The notes beneath the pieces are model-generated. The model did no database searches. It was not told where the DNA came from and worked only from the letters and a program-made list of their open reading frames with translations. Below are positions 35,438 to 50,773 of a stretch of 64,000 nucleotides of DNA, one piece after another. The stretch is from positions 2,666,001-2,730,000 of the forward strand of contig OZ361259.1 in assembly GCA_977018835.1 (NCBI GenBank), read 5' to 3'. This stretch comes from Minutocellus sp. GHC0000111. Lineage: Eukaryota. The position numbers and the translations under genes are program-made. Positions within the stretch are counted from its first letter, which is position 1, and every line of letters starts with the position of its first letter.

Positions 35438-38283
35438 TCAAGAACCACCTCCTCCGTCGTCGTCCTTCTTCTGTTGTTGCTGCTGTTGCTGCTGCTGTTC
35501 TGCGGCAGCTTCTGCAGATACCTTATCAACCAAGGACTTGATGTCCGTTTTACCCAACGCCTTCAAGTCTAATCCTTCCAGCTCGTTCGATAGTACCGAT
35601 AGATCTGTAATGTCCGACATGAGTGAAACCTTGGAATCATGAAAGCTACTTGAGCCTCTTCGACTGCTTCCGCCACCAGAATCTCTCCGGCCCGCAGGCG
35701 CCGCCAGTTTCCCTTGCTGCGCTTCCGTGTGGCCATGTCCCTCCTCAGCAATCATTTTCAGGAATGATTCCCCTGATAGAGTCATGTCTCCGTCGAGAGT
35801 AATGCCAGACATTTGCATCGACTCGGGAGCCTGAGCCCACGAGGCGTTCGACCCTGCTGGTGCTGGTGCTGGACCTTGTTGCTGCCATTCTCTTAATTGT
35901 AGCAGCTGTGGCTTTGATCCCTTGCGACGGATATTGGTAGCCTGGGCTGTAGCATCTGACTCTGACGAGAAATGAGACGTCTCTGATATCCTTCTTCTTC
36001 CATACACTGAGGGCTTAGTGCTATCCGCGTTGGAAGCAGCTGGTGCTGGTAACACGGGTGCGGAGGCGGATGCTGCAGCAGCTTGTGCCAGCGCCGCAGC
36101 CCCAACGGGAAGGGCGTCGATCGTACCCATGGTGCCTAGAGTACCCAACGTTCCAAGCGACATGAGAGATTCGTCCCCCATACTCAGGGTAGTGGCCGAC
36201 TTCATGTAGGTTGACCTATTGCCCGTATCATTGAGCGTTCCCACCATCTCCTCTCTAGCGGCCGCTGCTCCGATAGCTGCTGCACCGGAGGGAAAATTGA
36301 GAGGCACTCTACTCTCGCCGACGAGTTGTATGCTTTGGTCGTCGTCTGAATCCATTGTACGAGTTGTTCGCGAGGTGCGCATGGATTGGTCGTCAAAGAC
36401 ATCGCCCAATTGTGCGGCGGTGGGGACTGACATGGCATACTGTTCACGAGTAATGTCGGCTGTGGTCGCCTCCGCTGATGTAGAATCTTTGGCGGCGCCT
36501 TCCTTATTGGTCGCTTTATCGGGTGAGCTTAAGCCAGGCTGGGTGGGCTCGCCGCCCTCCACCTTGATGTTTTGGTCTGCTGGCGCTGCAGTGGCCGAAG
36601 CGGCCTTCTCGTTCGATTCTTCGCTTGCCTCCTCTTCCTTTTTGGTGGCTTTGCCGCCACTACTAGTAGCCTTCGGGGCATCATCATGCGACAAAGATGT
36701 CGCTTCCGCCACATCCTTCTTGTCGTCACTCTCGTCCTTCTTGTCCTTGCCATCATCCTGTCCCTCTTCCTTCTCGTTTGCTTCTTCCTCCTGCTGCTTC
36801 TTCTCCTCCAGCTCCTTGATGAACTTGATAACATCCGGCGTCCGCTCGCGGAGGCACTGGCTGGCCTTCTCCCTGGCCTTCTTGTCGCCAATGTCATTCC
36901 AAAGGCCGGAGCCGCCCAAGTTCATCAGGGCAGCAGCAGACGGGTTGCCCCCGGCCTGCATCATGAGGGCCGCCAGGGCCTGGAGCTGGTTGGCCCCGTC
37001 CGGACCTCCGGGAGCTCCGGGACCGCCGGGCTTGTCCTGCGCGAGGAACCGCCCCGGGGGGTCCTGCTCCCTCCACATCTGGACGATGTCGCGGGCCACC
37101 TGCGGCTTGTCGCGCTTGTCGGCCGTCAGGTACCGGCGCTTCTGCTCGGCCACCATCTTGCGGAAGCGGATGTTGCCCTCGTGGTTGTTGGCGCCGCCTC
37201 CGCGGCCGCACAGGACATCGTTGGGGCCGGGGACGGCAATGTTCATCAGCTGAACCTGCCCGGTTGGGTTGGTACCACCACCACCACCACCGATGCCCAT
37301 ACTGTCGATTCCTGGCATGGCAACTCCAGGCATACCAGGAGTCGCTCCTGGCATTCCTCCTGGCATACCCATTCCCGGCAGGCCCATGTTCATGCCCATG
37401 GCTCCGACACCGCCCATACTAGTACCGACCTGCTGCTGTTGCTGCTGCTGGGCCTGGAGCTGGGCCGCCATTGCCGCCGTCTGTTGCTGCTGCTGCAAAA
37501 TCAGAAGCTGCTGCTGCTGCATCTGGAGCATCTGGTGCTGCTGCAGTTGCTGCTGGACGACCTGCTGCTGCTGCGAGTCGAGGCCCGACAGGTCGACCTG
37601 CGGCTGCATGCCTCCCATGGCACCGACTCCGACGTTGCTCATGGCCGCGTTGGGCCACATCATGTTGTTGTTGTTGTTGCTGTTGCTGTTGTTGTTGGCA
37701 TTGCCATCTATTTGGTTCGGCATTTGCTGCTGCATCTGCTGCTGTGGCGACTGCATCTGCGGAGTTGTCCCCGCCGATGCCGACGCCAACGCCGACGAAG
37801 CCAGAGCCCCCCCGCTGCTGTGAGCGCTGCTGGTCGCCAGCGTCGGAGTGTGAAGGTCCTGCACCGGAAGGTTGCTACCACCCATCGCCGAGACGACTGC
37901 TGTTCCTGCGCCGCCTCCTGGTTGAGCTGCTGCTGCAACAGCTTCTGCTGCTCCTGCAGCTGGACTAGGAGGCGCTGCTGCTCCTCGAGGGGGAGGTGGG
38001 TCAGGTAGGAGGCCTGCGGAAGGTCGTTGCTCGACAGTAGATTTAGGCCGCCACCGCCGATGGCGTTGTTCATATCCGGCAGCTGATTCCCGTCGGCATA
38101 TCCTCCTCCCATGCCGGCGTTGATTTCTCCGTTGCCGCCGTTGGAAAAGTTGCTATTGTTGGGGTTCAGCGGGATGGGCTCGAATTGGCTCAGAAAGTCA
38201 TCCTCCTCCTGCTGCTGCTGCTGATCGTTGCCATCGCCACCACCGACGCCGCCGCCGTAATTGTTGTTCATCATGGCAGGCAT
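35438..38283 (-). CDS. DUF6824-domain protein with Gln/Asn/Met/Gly-rich low-complexity regions; frameshift near 37890
   Basis: PGPNDVLCGRGGGANNHEGNIRFR...DPPGRFL...WNDIGDKKAREKASQCLRE. Upstream ORF 37708..38283 supplies a Gln-rich N-terminus in another frame. Confidence 0.8.
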
Positions 38284-39739: not shown

Positions 39740-41545
39740 TTATCTTCCGGTACACCAACCCTCAGGAAGCAAAGGCAACAGCTCCTGAACGAGATCTGGC
39801 CGTTTCACGTCCAAGGGTTCCATGTCAAAGGGATCTCGGATTGCATCGTAAAGCAGAATGTGCCACGGTTCACCCTCGACGTATGGAGTGGCCGTCCTTG
39901 GAGCACCGGGACACTGCTCTGCCTTGCAGCATATGAGCTTGTAGGACGTCGTCGTTGGGTCCGAGGGCGAGGTTGGCATCTCCTTCACGACCATCCTCCA
40001 TGTGCCGTAGCCAGATGACACATGAGGCCGGCTTCTGCTGATACCGTGTCTAGTAGTTTCCTCCTCGGCCTCCGTTATACTTCCTCCTTCCTGCTGCCCG
40101 AGGATGGACCGCAAACTTGCCGTGGTCATCCCTGGCGCCAATTCGTCGACATTGGCAAAGTCCAAGAACGTTCCACCCAGATCCAAAGTGGTGACAGGTC
40201 CATCAAAGACGGCATCAGACCGTATTCCAGGCCCACTCACAAAGAGCGGGACCGACACCGATCCGTGCCAAGGCTTTCCCTTTCCGGTAGATCCGTGATC
40301 CGACAGATCATCGCCATGATCTCCGGCCACAACGATGATGGTGTTGTCCAGCTCCCCCATCTCCTTCACCTTGTTGACAATGTCCTGCATCAGTTGGTCA
40401 ATGTATTCAATCTCGGCGCCGTAGTTGCACCGTCCACCGACCTGCGGACCGACGTCGTCGACATCGTCTGGTCCCAGTTGCTGCTGAGGACACGTCACGG
40501 TCCAATGATCCGCGTCGTCCAAGTCGACCGGCGGAGGCCACGTTCGATCCATCACGCTCTTGGCCATCCTGGCCGTCGATATGATGGGATGGTGCGGTCC
40601 TGGAAAGTTCACCTGAAGGAACCAGGGTTGGCCATCGTTGCCATTGCTAGCATGGTCCTTGCGATCCAACAGATCGATCGCCACGTCCCTCACGAACTTG
40701 TCGGGGTAAACGTCCTCGTTGAACGACGACGAATCGCATCCCCCCTCCGGACCCAGCCCCTGCACACAGGCAATGTAGGCCTGACGGGCATTTATGTCCG
40801 TCCCGTTCCTCATCTGGGTGGTGGTTCCCTCCAGGAATAGCCGGTAGGGTTCATCCAAACGCTTGTCGTCCTTGTCGGTCCTGGAGTTGAGATTGCGCGT
40901 AATCTTCACCTTGCCGGCCGTGCGGATGGCGTCGCTAAATCCCAGGTCCATGGTGTCCTCGTATTCGATGGGGACGAAGGGGAATTTGCTGTCGCCCTGG
41001 TAGAGATCGTCCTTGCCGGCACTCATGACATGGTATCCCCCCTCGTCGCGCAGCAGCTTGTATATGGTGGTGGTGTCGGTCGGAAAGGTATTGACGTGGT
41101 TGGTAATCACGCCGACCTCGTCGATTTCCTTGCCAGAGGCCACGCAGGCACGGGACGGAGCGCAGAACGGCGACGGCACGTAGGCCTGGGTGAAGCGCGT
41201 GCCCCGTCGTCCCATCTCCGTTAGGAAGGGAACGCGGAGGGGGAGATGGCCGGTGGGTGTTTGCTCATGATGTCCGTCCCAGTCGAAGCGCCACTGGTCT
41301 AGAAGGAGAAAGAGGATGTTGGGACGGTTGTTGGAAGTACGAGTACTAGTAGGCGAGGAGCTGGACGACGAAGTCGAAAGCAAGCGGAAGGAAGAAGGAC
41401 CGCCGGTATTGCTCGGCGAGGAGGCGTCCGGCCCACCGAGCAGAAGGAAGAGGGCCGAGCCGGCCAGGCTGCAGATCGCCGCCGTCCGCTGCAGCCTCCT
41501 CTTTCGGCTGGTGCGATGTTGTTGTTGGGTATTATTGTTCGTCAT
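39740..41545 (-). CDS. Formylglycine-dependent (S1) sulfatase with an N-terminal signal anchor
   Basis: RPNILFLLLDQWR, PFCAPSRA (CxPxR), GKDD, FPGPHHP, GDHG, GKGKP..SVSVPL, LYDAIRDPF. Confidence 0.9.
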   Translation of the reverse strand: MTNNNTQQQHRTSRKRRLQRTAAICSLAGSALFLLLGGPDASSPSNTGGPSSFRLLSTSSSSSSPTSTRTSNNRPNILFLLLDQWRFDWDGHHEQTPTGHLPLRVPFLTEMGRRGTRFTQAYVPSPFCAPSRACVASGKEIDEVGVITNHVNTFPTDTTTIYKLLRDEGGYHVMSAGKDDLYQGDSKFPFVPIEYEDTMDLGFSDAIRTAGKVKITRNLNSRTDKDDKRLDEPYRLFLEGTTTQMRNGTDINARQAYIACVQGLGPEGGCDSSSFNEDVYPDKFVRDVAIDLLDRKDHASNGNDGQPWFLQVNFPGPHHPIISTARMAKSVMDRTWPPPVDLDDADHWTVTCPQQQLGPDDVDDVGPQVGGRCNYGAEIEYIDQLMQDIVNKVKEMGELDNTIIVVAGDHGDDLSDHGSTGKGKPWHGSVSVPLFVSGPGIRSDAVFDGPVTTLDLGGTFLDFANVDELAPGMTTASLRSILGQQEGGSITEAEEETTRHGISRSRPHVSSGYGTWRMVVKEMPTSPSDPTTTSYKLICCKAEQCPGAPRTATPYVEGEPWHILLYDAIRDPFDMEPLDVKRPDLVQELLPLLPEGWCTGR

Positions 41546-41792
41546 GGTTCTGCAGTCCCTTGCATGCAGATAGCAATAAGCTTATGGCAGCCGAGGAGGG
41601 GCCAGCGTTGGAGATCATGCTAAGCCCGGCTTATGTGCTGGAAAATGACCCCGATTTTTGGGACATCGCGAAATCGGAATGAGGGGTCTCCCCAAAACAT
41701 TTTCCAAAAAGTGAAACCGCTTCTGACTTTCGCCATAAAGCAAATTAAATCCAAACCCTGAACGAGCGAAGAGCGAAAGCCGAACTGCAACG

Positions 41793-44700
41793 ATGGCCCC
41801 ACCCCTCCAGGACGATCCGAACGGCACGGCGGACATCCATAGCGGCGCCAATGATACAGGCGTGGCAGTGAAGCAGCCGTCGGTCGCAGCGGCGTCGAAT
41901 CCGGCACGTCAAGCGTTGGATTCGCACCCATCAACCGACGGAGTTGCTGAGGATCTTTCCACCTCCTCCCCAGAGACGACGACAAACAACAACAACGGCG
42001 GCGTCAACGAGGACGGCAGCCCACGAACATCCAACCTAACGAATGTTATGGAGGCGTTCGATCTGACCTCGGGCGCATCGTCTCCTCGGCCATCGGCGGT
42101 GTCTACTAATACGTCAACCAACAACCCTGAACGAACCAAATCTTTCCGCACGACTGACGAGAATGGTGGTGGATCTATTATTACCACTCCTGACGAGGAT
42201 GGACGGGACGACGACATGTCGATATCTTCCGACTACATCCAACAAGACAACAATAGCAACAACAACCAGAATGCGGTCGAGACCAATCATTCTCTGGCTC
42301 TGGGAATTGCCGCGGCGTTCAATAACAACAAGGACAGCGGCGGCGTGACTGATAGTGGCAGTGGAACGATAGCTGCTACAAGTACCACAGCTACCACGGC
42401 AGCACCAACGAATAATCGATCGATGCTCGGAGCCCGCAAGTACTGCTGCCAGGAGGCTCTGATGAACGACGGACGGTGCAGCTGCAATGGTAGTGGTGGC
42501 AACATCGACAGACAAACTAGTACTGCCGGTGACGTCGACGCACCGGCAATTCAGCATGTAAGGGCCGGGGCCTCGGCTGACGTTTCGGCCACCAACCTTC
42601 TCTTCCCCGCGCCGACGGTCGGCGATGAATCATATGCTCCTTTTACTAGTACTGCAGCACCTGCAGCCGACACGTCAGGCGCCAACGATGCTGCCGATAA
42701 TAATGGTGGAGTGCCAAGTACCTGCGACAATGCGAACTGGCATGTTCTGGGACTTTGCTCTTGCGGACTGCAGCAACAGCCGCAGCCGCCGATGAAAAGG
42801 TCCGAGGCCAGGGCTGGAAACAATGATGGGGAAACAATGATGGGGAAACGGCTGCCACCTTGAATGTCTCTCTGTTACACTCTCCGGCAATTCCTTATTT
42901 CACGGCTGCTGCTGGTACTACCGCTGCAAGTGCTGCTGCTCCAAGTGCTACTTCCAACACCGGTAGTGCCGATGCTGGTGCCGGTGCTGGGCAGACCACG
43001 CGCACGTCATCTCTACTCGGAAGGCTCTTCCGCGGTGGTGGAGGTAGTCTATCGAATGCCGGCAGCAGTGGATCGACCAATGCTGCTCCTGCCCCAGCTG
43101 CCGCCGCCGCTGCTGCTGCTCCTGCCCCTTCGGCTTCGAATTCCAACGTTCATGTCATCCCTAATCCTCCTCCTGCACCTACTCAACAGCAGATGACGCA
43201 ACAGGCGTTGCAGCGATCGCAGATGATGCAGCGGGCGCAGCAGTATCGGCAAAGGCTTGCTGCTGGTGGCGCTCTTGGTGGTGGTACTAGCATGGGCGGC
43301 ATCGGTCAAATCATTCCGCGCAGGGCCCGAGGGTGGTTTGGTGGACGACATGGTGGTATTGGAGTTGACACTCTTTACTACCAAGCTCCAGACACCAAGT
43401 CGTTGCCTCCGGGACTTGGTCTCAACGATACCATCGATGCTGAGAATAGTATTTGTCGATCCATTTCACCACAAGAGATTGAATCGATTCTACTGACCGG
43501 CTGTGAGGAGACGTGCAAGATTTGCCTCGAGCCCATTGTCGATCCCAAAGATATTTGCAGTGACTTTTCTCCGCCGAACTCGCGCGTCGTTTGTCTTCGG
43601 AGATGCGCCCACCGCTTCCACCTTGCGTGTATCCGTCACTGAAATGTCCCGAGTGCCAAACAGCGCTCCTATCCGAGCGAGATATTGGCGACATGGTGTC
43701 AGGAAACAGTCCATCGGGTACCATGGATATTTCTTCTTGTTCATCCGTCGAAGGGCACAGTGATTGTGGCGGCAAAATGATATCTTACTCTATCCATGCT
43801 GGCGTGCAGAAGCAGTACCATCCTCACCCAGGCCAACACCACGGCGGTGCCTACCGGCAGGCCTACCTTCCCGACAACGAAGAGGGCCGCCAGCTGTTGA
43901 GCCGTCTCAAGTATGCCTTCCTTCACGGCCTCACCTTTCAGGTGGGCAAATCGCTCACCAATGGCGCAGACAACCAAGTGACGTGGGCGTCGATACATCA
44001 CAAGACGTCGCCGCGTGGTGGACCACACGGATTTCCTGATCCATCCTACTTGCAAAATTGCAATGGGGAACTCGACACCGCCGGTGTTCCTACCGCTCAA
44101 GTCTGTGCGGGATATCTCGCATCACGAAGGGCCCCAGACTTTATTCAGCGAGCGGTGCAGTCTGATCCTCTCGATCTCGGGGAAAGCCAAGTCGTTCTCT
44201 TTCACCTTATTCACGCTGAACACTGCTCCCACAATCCAACCCAGAACCATGGTGCGCAGTGTTCTATCGTCAATTGCTGTGCCGAGTTCAAAGAGTTGCG
44301 TCAGCATGTCGATGCCTGTGCGGACCCTGCCTGTACTTTCAATTACTGTCAAAAGGCAAAGAAAGTTCTCTCGCACTACCGGCTCGCTCAGTGCTCCGCT
44401 GGTTGTACCGAGTGTGGAACAGTTCGAGCCGCAGTCCAAGCCGCCACAACCCTCGGAGATGACATCGGGTCGCTCCCTGCATACAATTTAGACCAAGTCA
44501 TAAGGACGGCGTCCCACGCCAGAAGAAAATACGACGTTTCCTTCTTTTATCAAGAACCAGCATCGGATCTCTTTCTGTCGGAGTCCTTTCCTTATGATAC
44601 GCTGGTGAGACAAATCGGTCTAAACGCTCTTCTAACCTTTATACAAAGAACGGGCGTTGAGGGTTCTTCTGTGGTTCTCAATCCACATCTCACGAAAACC

Positions 44701-45459
44701 TGGTCAAAATACAAAGCCTTTGTCGAAGAGGGGGAGAAATGTGCCAGTATTGCGGACAAGCACTTTACGGTCAGGATCGTATTTCACGGCACCGCTTCTC
44801 GAAATATTGATTCAATTCTTGAGCATGGACTAGATCAACATCGTAGAGCTCGACAAGCATTTGGCCAGGGGGAATATTTTGCTTCTAATGCTGCCATGTC
44901 GTCAATTTACTGTCAAGGCGGGAATCGAATGCTCGTTTTTGCTATCATTTGTTGCGACACGGACGTCCGATCTCAGCAGAAGGACCAGGGTATCGTCGTG
45001 GTGAGTGAATCCAACCGCCAGCTACCCCTTGGCACCCTGACGTTTACGAATTTGATCATGGAAGGCCGCATGCAGGGCGATGCTTTCCAGTTCCAGCTCA
45101 ATAAATTGAAAGAAGAGCAGCAGAAGTTGGAGAAGATTGCAGGGGAGGCGAAGGAAAAGATCGTTCGTTTCATTCTTCGAGGTCAGTATGATGTTGCCTC
45201 TGAATATTACGAAAAGGCTCGCAACCGCAATGGTGGCGATCCTCCGTCGTCCTGGGCTGAGGAAGTCGCCTGCTACGTGAGAGATCACATTCGAGACTCA
45301 GAGATGGTGGAGATTTACTTTCCCCGCTTGCCTGCCAGGCCTACGCTCGCGGAGGATGTAGACATGCTCAATGTTGACAAGTGTGAAAATGAAGCCAGAG
45401 AAGCGAAACGAAAGGCCGATGAATATCTGAAGCAAAATAAGAAAAAGACAGCTGGGTAA
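41793..45459 (+). CDS. Deltex-like RING-H2 + DTC ubiquitin ligase fused to a TAZ-like Zn finger and a PARP-like ADP-ribosyltransferase domain; two frameshifts as assembled
   Basis: RING: CKIC...CAHRFHLAC / CPEC. DTC: GNSPSGTM, GVQKQYHPHPG, RQAYLPDNEEG, AFLHGLTFQVG, VTWASIHHKT..GG.HGFPDPSYL...EL. TAZ-like His/Cys cluster. ART: FHGT, FGQGEYFA, SSIY, IVVV...QLP. Confidence 0.82.
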
Positions 45460-45658
45460 AGGAGGAACTTGATTCCGATGCATGTTTCTTTGGCTGCCGT
45501 TTCCTTGGCTGCCGGAGGATTTGTGCATATTCCATGCATATCAATACACAAGATAAATAACTTAAGAAATAAGCTTACATTTTGATAGAAGCAGCACGAT
45601 CGTGAATGTTTTCTTCGTCTACACCTTTACCTCTAGCTACGTAGCAATCTATCCTTCT

Positions 45659-47197
45659 TCACCGTCCTGACGAGGTATGCATATCTGTTTCAGTCCATAA
45701 ATCTAACCGCTTGCTCAGATTGGCCTTGCCCTCCTCGCAAGCATTCTTCTTCCAGTATGTGGCAGCATCGTTCAATGTGCGCGTTATTAAGCATATCGCA
45801 AACGACTCCCGACGCTGTTGCATCTGATTGAGAGGCTTCTTCTCACCGGCAGGTTTATGCGGCGGTGGAGGAATCTTGTAGTCATATTTGGTCCCAACGT
45901 CCGGCTGTGGCTCGTACAACAATGACTTCTCGCATGTGAGAAAGTCCTTCGGCAATCGTCTCTTGCCAAAAAAGTGTTTGCCGATCATGTAGCGCTGGCA
46001 GTAATGCATGACGCCCGGGAGGGAGCGATCAGTGTTGCGAATGTCGAGACCAAACTGACAGGCGTCCTCAAGCGACAAATCGTCAATTAAATTCCACCCT
46101 TCCCTTTGATTGCCAGTATCACTCATCATCAGCGAGCGGACCATTTGATGTGGCAGCTCCAAATGTGCTGCGGCCATTGAGTAGGCATACATTTCCGCCA
46201 ACAGATGTGGATAAACCTTGTGAACCTTGGGCACATAATCCGTCCATTTCTTGACCAAGGTGTAGAAATCTCGTCCTGTTGCCAGGTACGGAGGTCCAGC
46301 TGGATAGTAATCGGCGGCCTCCTTCTGGGTGAGTTTTCTCGCCGGAGAATCTTCCTCGGAAACTTCAATGGCCTGTCGTTTCCAATCCGCCCCATAACCA
46401 TACTCTTGAGCAAATGGACGACCATGCGTCACCTTTCTATTGCCCATATCGGCCCTGAACAAATGGGCTGGATCTGAGAAATCATCCGTCAATGGCCGTA
46501 GAAGGATGTGATCCGGGTCCAGCAGAATGGCAATGGCATCCTCATTCAGAACCTTGCCTGTCGCCATATCAACTCCCATGCCCTCCCCATGTTCGATCCA
46601 ATGCTGCATTCCAAAGGGCTTGTTGAAGAAATCATATGACTTGCCCGTCTCCTCTCCGTTCTCATCCTTCACGTTGCTAAAGTGCGGCGTCAGGTGGAGT
46701 CGGAACCGAGAGCTCATGGGCTTCACATGCTTGTCGAACCATTCCTGCTCAGCCTTTGCCTCCTCGTCGGTACAACTGGACGCTATTCGAGTGACGTACC
46801 CTGGCTGCTTCACCATCATTGCCGAGTAGAACACCAGATAACTTTGCCATCTCTGATAATCGCCGCAATCGGTCGAAAAGGTGACCTGATACTTGGAATG
46901 GTCTACGTCAGCATCAGCATCAGCATCAGTCCCTGCTCCTGTGGGGCCCGTGGAGTCACCGGGAGTAGCCCCGGCATCCGCCGCCACTTCCAATGCCGGC
47001 ACATCTTGAGTGGACACGACCGCCTGTGCGCCAGCACCAGGAGCGGACGTATTCCTCGAAACGGCGACCAGAGCCGACACGGCAATTAGCGATGCCAGGC
47101 CCACCAGGGAGAGCACTATGGTCAGAGGGTGGCACCGGCAGGTCGACCCGTCGCCGGAGCGCTCCCCCCGTCGGCGCCGTCCTACCTTCTTCGCCAT
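45659..47197 (-). CDS. Peptidyl-serine alpha-galactosyltransferase / hydroxyproline O-arabinosyltransferase-like type II membrane glycosyltransferase
   Basis: Signal anchor; FSTDCGDYQRWQ, VTRIAS, NKPFGMQHW, LLDPDHILLRP, AGPPY, LLAEMYAYSMAAAHLELPH, HYCQRY. Confidence 0.8.
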   Translation of the reverse strand: MAKKVGRRRRGERSGDGSTCRCHPLTIVLSLVGLASLIAVSALVAVSRNTSAPGAGAQAVVSTQDVPALEVAADAGATPGDSTGPTGAGTDADADADVDHSKYQVTFSTDCGDYQRWQSYLVFYSAMMVKQPGYVTRIASSCTDEEAKAEQEWFDKHVKPMSSRFRLHLTPHFSNVKDENGEETGKSYDFFNKPFGMQHWIEHGEGMGVDMATGKVLNEDAIAILLDPDHILLRPLTDDFSDPAHLFRADMGNRKVTHGRPFAQEYGYGADWKRQAIEVSEEDSPARKLTQKEAADYYPAGPPYLATGRDFYTLVKKWTDYVPKVHKVYPHLLAEMYAYSMAAAHLELPHQMVRSLMMSDTGNQREGWNLIDDLSLEDACQFGLDIRNTDRSLPGVMHYCQRYMIGKHFFGKRRLPKDFLTCEKSLLYEPQPDVGTKYDYKIPPPPHKPAGEKKPLNQMQQRRESFAICLITRTLNDAATYWKKNACEEGKANLSKRLDLWTETDMHTSSGR

Positions 47198-47213
47198 GGT
47201 CAAGCAAGCAACG

Positions 47214-47241
47214 GTCAACAGTCAACAGTCAACAGTCAACA
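47214..47241. repeat. (GTCAACA)x4 tandem repeat just upstream of the glycosyltransferase start
   Basis: Read directly from the sequence. Confidence 0.9.
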
Positions 47242-47463
47242 AGTGCTCAAGCAAGGCGCCGTGTGCTGCAAATAATTGACGGCCGGCCAAAAATGTGAGG
47301 CACTAAAAAACGTTGAGGATTTTGTAAACACTAATCCCACCATGTCGGCATGTCGGCTGATCGGCAGGCCGCTGGCCGCTGGGCATGGGGACCAGTATGG
47401 AGCAAGGAGCGGCGGCCCGGCCCTACATGTACAAAGAGCAAGAGCAGGAGCACTGCAGCAGCA

Positions 47464-50400
47464 ATGGCGGAGAATAATGAGGGTTCAAGCACCGAAGAGC
47501 CAACCTCGGCGGCAACAGAGGCGGCGCCGACTGGCACCAAGCCAAGAGGTTCTGCCAAGGCGGTGCGAGTGTGGACGGGGTCGCCAACAGTGGGAGGGGA
47601 CGACGCTGACAACGTTGCCAGCCTACATCGTGCATCGTCTCTGCCCGTTGATTCGACGGTAGCGGCTGGCACTTCATCGTCATCCAGCCTTTTCTATCGC
47701 AATCGAGATATTACCAAGTCGAGCAGATCGATACGCCATGATCTAGAGAATCTGATGGAAGACGAGGAAGACAAAGAAGACGAACTTGAATCTGCCCATG
47801 TTGTAAGGTCAAGGTCGGCACCAACCTTTGAACTTGAGAATCCATCAATAAATGCATCAGCAGGGCCGCCCAGGGTTGGACACCAGCAACAGTCGCCAGT
47901 ACATGAAGCTCAACCTCTACTTGGTGGGTCTGTCACTTCGCATCCGAGATCGAGTTGGGAATCGCGGGATGAGGATCAGCGACTGGCCCGAATTGCTGCG
48001 GCATTTCTCAATGATTATGAGGCAGGACAGGCGCCAACTTTGCCGCCGGATTTGGTGAACATTACAGACCATCACCTTCATTTGCATGCGATCCGCTTTT
48101 CGAAAGTGTGGCGTGTCATTATGGTGTTCGCTACTGGATGTCTCTTCGTTGGTAGCTGCTTTGAAGGAAGCGATGAAGACGAGGCTTGGGAAACGTATGA
48201 CAGGGCATATCTAGCTGAGAGGATACGGCGAAAGCAGACGATTCTTTTATTTTGTACGGTCATACCTGTTCTGGTGTTCGCGCTTGACATATCGATGATG
48301 GCAGTTTTATTCTCCAGAAGAGGGCACACTGAAAGATTAGACACTTTGCTTGGGGCTGAATTGTTGCAGGATGGGAATGGCCAAGCACCCTCTCGGTCAA
48401 CTAAGAACGCAGAGAGGCCCAAGAAGGCGCGAACGTCGCGATCGTTTTGGTGGGCCATGCCAGTTTTACTCTTTCTCGCAGTGCTCTCGGTGGAAACATT
48501 GGTTGTGACACTATCTGGAGCTGTTCTGCAACGTCGTATCTGGTCCAGCCTTGCCAAGCCGATAGTTCTCTTCTATGTGAGCTCCAGAACTCGAAACGCT
48601 CTTGATGCTCTTAATCGAGTCATTCGCGTGGTTTTGAGAGTAATATTGATTGAATTATTTCTCATCTTCACATTTGGGTCGGTCGCAGTCCAGTTGTTCG
48701 GAGATGAATTCGAGTCCTTTGAGGGTCTCCCTGTTTCTTTTTTATCCATGTTTCAATTGTCGACCACCGTTGTAAATCCATCGCTCTGGATGCCAGTGGT
48801 TGCCCAGTATGGCCGTTCATCGTCCATCTTTTTCGTCATATTTCTCGTCACGAGGTAAGCAAAGAAATTGCGACGTCCTTTCGCTTCGAACCCATATTGT
48901 TTGAATTATTACTTTTCTAATTCGAATGTCTCTCGTTCTCTATTATTTTCTTCGTGCACAAAGCGTGTTCTACTTGCATTCGCTTGTGCTCTCTGTCGTC
49001 TTTCAAAGCTACATGGATGGCATGGCAGCAATTCGTGAGCATTCTGCGATAGACAGGGAAAAGAATTTGCAGCTAGCTTACGAAGCGTTGAGTGATCTCG
49101 ACACGGATGAGGAGTTCAGGTCCACGTCGGCGCCCACACACCGCATTCGTGGTGCCCTTGGCCTCCTGAGAGAGCACTACACCGTCACCAAGATGAATGT
49201 ACTGATGCAGACAATAGATCCATTCAATTCGGGTACGATTGATTACAATACTTTCCGCCTGAAAATTCCCAAGGCTCTCAATCTGTCTGTGCACTCAGTC
49301 CGGCCACGGAACTCGCTATCTCATGTTCTTGAGATACTTGCGATCGCGGTTGCATTGGTCAATTTGCTCTACGTTTTCCTGGCATCTTCATCTTATTCAT
49401 CATGGTGGTGGGATGCAACTGTCGTTCCGGTCGGCTTCTTTATCACACTATTGTGTTTGGTTGAATTAGTGACTCGGCTCATTGTTGTGAAAATCTTGCG
49501 TGCGGCAGATGTCGAGACTGGCAAGCCGAATTCCACTTTCGATGGACTTGCATTTGTGGCTGCCATGACCTCGATGGTTGGCCTGGCATTACATGGCACT
49601 ACAGAGTACAAGCGTGCTTTGGATTGTGTCTTCACGGGACGAGCAATTGACATGATCCGGTGTCTGAGATAAAATGAAGAGGCAAGAGGGATCGGTAAGT
49701 GTACCAAGCAAAGCATTGTTACCTATGGTACCTATGTACATCTATCCGCCAACATCTTTCTCTTCAAATTAAGGCATCCCATCCTTTCCCTGCGCCGTGT
49801 AGTGAAGAGAAGTTCGGAGGTTATCCCTGCCCTTTTGGGTCCCATCTTACTCATTATCAGCGCCATGCATATATTTACTTATCTGGGCATGGCCATATGG
49901 GGAGGCAAGGTCGTATGTGGAGCTAATCCTGATCTCACCCCATATTACGACCTGAATAATTTCAACACGTACTTATCAGGAGTCATCACTCTGTTTCAAG
50001 TACTCGTCGTCAACGATTGGCATGCAATCGCATTGGTGTTCATCCTTCCTGCTGGCCACACAGTTACAAATGTGCTTGTCTATCCATTCTTCATCGTCGC
50101 TAATCTCGCATTAACATCGGTACTATTGAATGTCATGATAGCTTTCTTCGTCAATGCGTTTGTCACGAAGGCCACCGACAAACGCATGCTAATCGGAGCT
50201 GATCAAGGTGGCGCCAGGAAATATACTTCTGGCCTTGATAATTCCATACTGTCAAAAGATACAGGTGCTGAAATCAGCTCGGAAGCAGACGCTACCACTG
50301 TCGACCAATCCATTACCACCATTACGATCAGTGAACGCCAAGGCTTTGATAACATACTCAAAACAATTGCCAGAGAAGGTAGCGAGGACGGCGAAGAGAG

Positions 50401-50773
50401 TGCTGCTAGAATAGGTTCTCAAATGTTACAAGCATTCGAAGAGCTTTCGTTGTCTGTTGACAATTCCAGTACAAAGTTCGGTTATCTCGTGTCTTGTCAT
50501 AAGTCGAAGCATCGATATGGTAACCAAAGACTGATGAATCACATTCAGTCCTTCATGGAAGCACGGACCTTGCACCAGATTATTGGCGAAATGTCGATGG
50601 AATTAGCCAATTTGGCAGAAAGTGGTGGTGCTACAAGCTACACTCTTGAACGCGTGTTTCGAGCCCCCGGCGAAAACAAGGCCCTCGAGATCCGAGCGTC
50701 ATTATTGGCTGGATCTACTGTGAGTCTCTTCGTTTCGAGATTAGCTGATGCTCCACCCGATGGAGTCAAATAG
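47464..50773 (+). CDS. Two-pore channel (TPC)-like cation channel; introns 48855..48963 and 49695..49802; in-frame TAA at 49670
   Basis: Pore I SFLSMFQLSTTVVNPSLW; EF-hand-like IDPFNSGTIDYNTF; pore II LNNFNTYLSGVITLFQVLVVNDW; S6 LLNVMIAFFV. Splicing keeps the frame through CLR*NEEARGIVKRS. Confidence 0.8.

Follow-up and report, generated by a model that had tools for sequence, protein, structure and literature searches.

The ubiquitylation of ADP-ribose is chemistry of recent date, and the pairing of transferases with the Deltex ligases that they supply in cells is still partly open, according to the accessible portion of PMC12687431. The same portion names PARP7, PARP10 and PARP14 as suppliers of ADP-ribose for Deltex ubiquitylation. 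PARP10 carries Ile at the third triad position and is described as an active mono-transferase in the available text of PMC2964712, and the excerpts on PARP9 give it no assigned catalytic activity, a degenerate triad and macrodomains (PMC12687431, PMC2964712). On the ligase side, the DTX2 residues R535, S567, W578, H582, H594 and E608 are reported, in the sections at hand, to have ADP-ribose-binding or catalytic roles (PMC7615817, PMC7442474), and ubiquitylation of ADP-ribose by DTX2 is described, in an excerpt, as depending little on the RING linchpin Arg. As to diatoms, the available part of one survey states that they appear to lack PARPs (PMC2964712), and that of another assigns at least two to T. 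oceanica (PMC4245714).

The window, a stretch of 64,000 nucleotides from Minutocellus sp. GHC0000111, contains on its plus strand an intronless gene (41793..45459) whose intact allele encodes 1224 aa and whose window allele is broken by two frameshifts. Three overlapping plus-strand frames cover it (41739..42863, 42827..43642 and 43564..45459). The last, stop-free over 631 aa, holds the Deltex C-terminal domain (DTC), a zf-TAZ finger and a PARP domain, which bears out an earlier note that had placed all three in one uninterrupted ORF. The frame 42827..43642 ends with six of the eight RING-H2 ligands, the last CxxC being in the next frame, and no Pfam family is found in 41739..42863. All three Pfam matches exceed the curated cut-offs (DTC E 3e-41, zf-TAZ E 7e-7, PARP E 4e-11). 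Among solved structures, the best sequence matches are DTX3L, DTX2 and DTX1 (E 3e-30 to 1e-20), followed with weak E-values by PARP16, tankyrases and CBP TAZ1. Together, Pfam and the structural comparison of the ART model locate the RING-H2, DTC, TAZ and PARP-fold domains at the positions first claimed for them.

A 2513-base RNA contig running from the RING to the stop codon in a single frame was found in each of two studies. The RNA contigs have no joints; those of one run (X5) cover 41752-45563, and 41500-41640 is without RNA cover. The two long contigs both end at 45563, which weakly suggests that the transcript ends there. Transcription as separate genes, which the earlier note had raised against its own reading, is ruled out by these one-frame contigs and by the same fusion in relatives. 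Introns are likewise ruled out as the cause of the breaks, since no joints appear in the RNA contigs and one of the breaks consists of a deletion. At 45056, all eight compared runs read C and the window T (Ile for Thr), which is either a private variant or a base error. The gene lies head-to-head with a sulfatase gene (39740-41581, minus strand), the start codons being about 245 bases apart. Also nearby are genes for a DUF6824 protein (35438-38152, minus), an HPAT-family glycosyltransferase (45659-47221, minus) and an ion channel, the last in several frames (47335-50773, plus). The named homologues of the Deltex gene and the neighbouring DUF6824 gene, of a family linked to diatoms, likewise indicate a diatom.

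Eight sequencing runs out of 22 listed were compared over the locus: four of the sequenced organism (organism A; X1-X4), which cover intergenic DNA, two RNA runs from different studies (X5, X6), a sponge metagenome whose DNA type was guessed (X12), and DNA of a relative about 95% alike (X14). Frameshift 1 is a 14-base tandem duplication (42816..42843, +) that leads to a stop at 42863; it is present in X1-X4 and in X12, where the call consists of only 8 bases at a contig end, and absent from X5, X6 and X14. Frameshift 2 is a 22-base deletion between RING ligands 6 and 7 (site 43633..43634, +), the 22 bases being present in the X5 and X6 contigs and in the database protein P0001. Both breaks occur in 5/5 DNA-type runs of near-identical sequence, the four of the sequenced organism (4/4) included, and in 0/2 RNA runs. 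Taking out the 14 bases and restoring the 22 yields a single frame of 1224 aa, and the homologues keep the RING residues missing at 43633, so the deletion is the derived state. The gene span of the earlier note thus stood after frame corrections near 42816 and 43633, with which the RNA-run contigs agree, although both breaks are real in the sequenced organism. Assembly error is ruled out, as both are found in 4/4 organism runs and in an independent metagenome. RNA-level repair is unlikely because restoring the 22 ancestral bases would require a DNA template, and because the X14 DNA is without the duplication.

Since both breaks are real in the sequenced organism, its allele encodes, from the first ATG, just a 356-aa low-complexity N-terminal piece. 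At the sequence level the window allele is a loss-of-function copy, a pseudogene, from which the ligase would not be made. It is probably present on both chromosomes of the sequenced organism, and the gene is therefore probably dispensable there. A homozygous null has a good probability in our estimation, with the proviso that contigs cannot prove absence. Were the organism instead heterozygous, RNA of the broken allele would be destroyed and the contigs, which drop variants, would hide an intact allele. This is consistent with 5/5 DNA-type runs giving the broken form only and 2/2 RNA runs the intact one, and with X12 carrying, beside both breaks, SNPs that belong to the intact haplotype of X5. 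However, known heterozygous sites split 2:2 (42755/42788) or 3:1 (41842) across the four runs of the organism, whereas both breaks are 4:0, which favours the homozygous null. There is also almost no variation over 43115-45563 among these runs, and the duplication is absent from the X14 DNA, so intact DNA exists; heterozygosity appears rather unlikely. A strain with the broken allele beside wild intact alleles would serve as a natural knock-out.

In the intact allele and in homologues the RING-H2 finger (C3H2C3; 43514..43656, +) is followed directly by the DTC (43702..44088, +; Pfam and alignment); frameshift 2 disrupts this RING in the window allele, splitting it. With the DTX2 numbering set by the spacing of K473, H582 and E608 in chain 6y22, the ADP-ribose pocket and the catalytic His-Glu pair are kept in the window DTC at 6/6 positions, the equivalents of R535, S567, W578, H582, H594 and E608 lying at 43855, 43951, 43984, 43996, 44026 and 44068 (+). 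The six positions are complete in seven of the nine DTC-bearing rows of alignment A3; they are kept in the metagenome locus L001 wherever an exon covers them, and lost in P0005. These data support an intact DTC catalytic site, and ligase activity is predicted. The full-length model also matches the RING-DTC of DTX2 and DTX1 (E 4e-11). In the diatom fusion the canonical RING linchpin Arg is Gln. Neither WWE (DTX1/2/4) nor KH/RRM (DTX3/3L) was detected by Pfam at E<=1 in the N-terminal frames, where only a RING piece and low-complexity sequence matched; the protein is therefore not an orthologue of a named human Deltex subfamily.

The compact PARP-fold ART domain (44590..45060, +) was recognised by Pfam, predicted structure and profile matches. 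Against its model (pLDDT 88), 17 PARP-family chains take ranks 1-17 of 48,161 chains, with PARP15 best (Z 13.7, rmsd 2.8, 144 aligned) and PARP10 at Z 13.5, so that an ART fold over 44660-45045 is upheld; Foldseek assigns the PARP catalytic fold at prob 1.0. Inactive folds reach nearly the same score (PARP13 Z 13.3, RCD1 13.0, TASOR 10.9). Profile matches are best to PARP10/12/14/15, and the domain is about 30 residues shorter than that of PARP10 (147 model residues vs 180). FHGT starts at 44782, with His at 44785; the Tyr of GEYFA is at 44875 and a second Tyr at 44908 (+), His and Tyr being placed by alignment with PARP10 and PARP12. Motif spacing and the end offsets of the structural ranges put Ile 44992 (+) in what we take to be the third triad place, on PARP residue numbers as we presume them. 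The triad H-Y-I, with Ile in place of Glu as had been read from the sequence, is of the mono-ART type (PARP7/10/12).

His, Gly and Tyr are invariant in 32/32 ART rows. In A3, the 12 ART-bearing rows that cover these sites all retain His and both Tyr, bar one Phe at the second Tyr, and every fused copy has Ile or Val at the third position of the triad. The catalytic Glu of the poly-ART triad H-Y-E is found in 0 of 120 motif-matched ART family members; another Glu, just ahead of the triad Tyr, is almost invariant (124/126). At a pocket position that we take to be nicotinamide-binding, Ser is replaced by Pro in 8/9 fused copies; the window lineage keeps Ser, which is also present in 105/126 other family members (126 matched of 144). 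The domain is predicted to mono-ADP-ribosylate, with the Pro in 8/9 fused copies and the compactness of the domain counting against activity. The ART family comprises 604 proteins at E<=0.001 and is also joined to E2, UBA, Macro, ankyrin and TAZ domains (among 30 chosen proteins, mostly the longer of 150 listed). Fusions of the compact ART to E2, macrodomain or UBA (P0093, P0111, P0122; P0101-P0103, P0117; P0204) form an algal parallel to fungal PARP-UBC.

PARP9, proposed in the earlier note as a model, does not fit: it lacks assigned catalysis and has a degenerate triad and macrodomains, and the window ART keeps its His. The Pfam scans gave no Macro match, and the PARP9 triad Q-Y-T/S is absent. 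PARP7/10/14 together with DTX2/DTX3L provide the closer model.

Upstream of the RING lies a low-complexity region of about 530 aa rich in Ala, Thr, Asn, Gly and Gln (41793..43390, +), which matches no Pfam family and whose modelled part has pLDDT <50. It contains two short Cys motifs of the form C-C/D-x-x-A-x(n)-C-S-C (42444..42488 and 42723..42767, +; motif reading), possibly a small zinc knuckle; the motif occurs twice in P0260 and once in P0005, with no family match. The TAZ zinc finger (44197..44415, +) has three His-Cys-Cys-Cys groups, with 12 zinc ligands read from the alignment and weak matches to CBP/p300 TAZ1. It scores 30 bits in Pfam against a cut-off of 25, and its four helices are modelled at pLDDT ~65-85; no TAZ chain is among the matches listed for the full-length model. 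The TAZ-like finger first noticed here is thus present, but it is no core part, being optional and mobile among relatives. A long helix and small helical tail (45058..45456, +) are conserved in every fused copy as well as in many stand-alone relatives and match no named family; an Atlas search gave no usable match, and the structural matches (Z<=8.2, helical bundles) were rejected as not meaningful. The full model of P0001 (pLDDT 66, pTM 0.42, from a 15-row alignment) matches the DTX2 RING-DTC and PARPs. Its confidence is low over the DTC pocket (368-398) and domain contacts are not fixed; with that pTM, the model is therefore mute on whether the two sites reach one substrate.

The RING, DTC and ART occur together in the database proteins P0001 (99%, intact), P0003 (a complete MMETSP transcript, 44% identity), P0004 (Thalassiosira profunda), P0005 and P0260 (1167 aa, 46%). 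Six of eight metagenome loci (L001-L005, L007), about three distinct genes and several with apparent introns, match from the RING to the tail. Profile, structure-model and homologue searches of the kind the earlier note had proposed hence confirm Deltex_C, zf-TAZ and PARP, and the same architecture in other diatoms and environmental RNA data. The order RING-DTC-ART-tail is shared by P0003, P0004, P0005, P0260 and the six loci at 34-46% identity. TAZ lies between DTC and ART in the window, P0003, P0260, L001, L003 and L004, precedes the RING in P0004, is absent in P0005 and L002, and has a second copy at the end of L001, L003 and L004; because its position and presence vary, the core is RING-DTC-ART-helical tail. 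Ankyrin repeats are an addition of L004; P0260 has in addition a RanBP-type finger, which scores just below the cut-off. Seven fused ARTs fall in one 14-row group (support 92) with fragments and P0022, in a 158-row FastTree of few columns without bootstrap. The halves can part: P0005 has lost the DTC Glu and keeps the ART, P0024 is a RING-DTC without ART, and P0022 has an ART and partial RING without DTC. P0024, very close to P0003/P0260, is possibly a truncated tandem duplicate, and P0024 and P0260 are both listed with a 22,644-base contig. The neighbours of L002-L007 differ from those of the window gene. Two short patterns gave 35 matches in viral contigs and 105 in prokaryote genomes with 0 relatives in either, a weak negative.

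Many other algal proteins have the DTC, or the whole RING-DTC unit, twice in tandem (P0006-P0018, P0020, P0021, P0023). RING-DTC is also joined to WGR together with WWE (P0041), to WWE (P0032, P0051) or to a macrodomain (P0082, P0091, P0097), which on domain content are putative further partners from the ADP-ribose system.

A second and commoner fusion type, here type B, has its ART before the RING. A YHYT...GL...G.G.Y motif stands there in 33 DTC proteins, and a profile built from these finds the ART in 49/95 DTC-bearing proteins, a share that is no census, the 95 having been retrieved by likeness to the window DTC. Examples are from Cylindrotheca closterium (P0034), Chaetoceros tenuissimus (P0036) and Skeletonema (P0054/P0070); P0019, P0026-P0029, P0034-P0038 and others also belong here. 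The type B ART has 22% identity to that of the window type (type A; hhalign probability 95%). Pfam matches PARP weakly in two of seven scanned and otherwise misses it; RING chains dominate among the 60 PDB matches listed for the type B profile, and one protein part has Atlas neighbours in PARP clusters at 0.94, a lead only. The third triad place is Glu in 18/33, and some of these H-Y-E domains may be poly-ARTs. In a quick DTC tree, type A DTCs lie outside a 93-row group (support 99) that holds all type B DTCs. Both types unite an ART with RING-DTC in a single diatom polypeptide, yet type B differs in its ART family (YHYT), the Glu, the side of the RING and the DTC group. Judging from the different ART, side and DTC group, the joining likely took place twice in diatoms.

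On balance, we cautiously favour the intact protein as a one-chain writer plus ligase making ubiquitin-ADP-ribose, both activities being predicted. Using NAD+, the H-Y-I ART would transfer a single ADP-ribose to a partner or to the protein's own disordered N-terminus. The DTC pocket would bind the adenine-side ribose, its His-Glu pair would activate the 3' hydroxyl, and the RING would bring E2~ubiquitin, to give an ester-linked ubiquitin-ADP-ribose mark. TAZ and other accessory fingers probably select targets. The self-contained enzyme of the earlier note, which ADP-ribosylates a target and then ubiquitylates it, accords with the architecture, triad and DTC site of the intact allele, whereas the window copy cannot make the ligase.

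Another transferase might supply the ADP-ribose. The ART would then be a pseudo-enzyme in the manner of PARP9, PARP13 or TASOR and would guide the ligase by binding to NAD+, ADP-ribose or a partner. The Ser-to-Pro change in 8/9 fused copies, the short domain and the high Z to inactive PARP13, RCD1 and TASOR agree with this, and many stand-alone ARTs (within the 604 relatives, taxa not given) could write instead. The retention of His and both Tyr in the A3 rows speaks against it, and PARP9, in the available text of PMC2964712, has lost the His, unlike the diatom fusion; we regard a pseudo-enzyme as unlikely. It is distinctly unlikely that both halves are active and uncoupled, with RING-DTC ubiquitylating lysines, free NAD+/ADP-ribose or nucleic acid ends, the ART modifying something else and the fusion just co-localising them. 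Deltex enzymes are reported, in the portions available, to act also on NAD+, free ADP-ribose and nucleic acids (PMC7615817, PMC10810221, PMC11460948), and the halves are lost singly in P0005, P0022 and P0024; but co-location accounts less well for two ART families having been fused with RING-DTC, each on a different side. Finally, the main substrate could be the protein itself, with auto-ADP-ribosylation and then self-ubiquitylation as a timer or NAD+ sensor of its half-life. PARP10 carries the mark on itself (PMC12687431, in excerpt), an auto-generated ADP-ribosyl degron on PARP7 is read by DTX2 according to the accessible part of bioRxiv 10.64898/2026.10.26.761924, and the N-terminus is long and disordered with Cys motifs. 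However, TAZ, ankyrin and RanBP-type finger were gained repeatedly, pointing to outside targets, and we hold self-modification as the main function very improbable.

Domain shuffling together with loss-of-function alleles suggests a conflict gene, and a stress, defence or meiotic role may be considered. Deltex family genes are described as up-regulated during sex in four diatoms in the text at hand of PMC12618581, and a search of its supplement files gave no Deltex match. We put forward as tentative the wider picture that diatoms twice, with two ART families, welded a writer onto a Deltex ligase, one chain then making the hybrid mark as an old or convergent algal signal, in a shuffling, often-lost family of conflict or meiotic surveillance.

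As the earlier note had surmised, no description of a PARP-Deltex fusion, of the window type or of type B, was found in the full-text literature searched, with most subscription papers, domain surveys among them, outside its reach; Pfam labels of P0003 and P0004 are already in public data. The fusion corrects the picture of diatoms with few or no PARPs given in the accessible parts of PMC2964712 and PMC4245714. A natural writer-ligase fusion offers independent genomic support for coupling, a one-protein test system and perhaps a means of producing the hybrid mark.

Compared with vertebrate MARUbylation by the PARP14/PARP9/DTX3L complex and by PARP7/PARP10 with DTX2, the diatom fusion shares the RING-DTC His-Glu pair and adenine pocket and the H-Y-I/L mono-ART, and the same two-step chemistry is predicted. 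In vertebrates these are separate genes, whereas the diatom has one chain without WWE, KH, RRM or macrodomain and with a TAZ finger and helical tail instead. To our knowledge, diatoms have no interferon system. Fungal PARP-UBC (clade 6A) and the Dictyostelium U-box-Macro-PARP likewise join a Glu-less PARP fold to a ubiquitin-transfer domain, but their partner is an E2 or a U-box, neither known from the available portions of these sources to act on ADP-ribose (PMC2964712, PMC4245714, bioRxiv 10.64898/2026.07.25.740670). The diatom ART scores best to clade 3 (PARP10/12/14/15), not PARP6/8/16, and it is joined to the only type of E3 for which ubiquitylation of ADP-ribose has been shown. If this reading is true, a mark known so far from separate, largely interferon-induced vertebrate proteins would also be made by one algal polypeptide.
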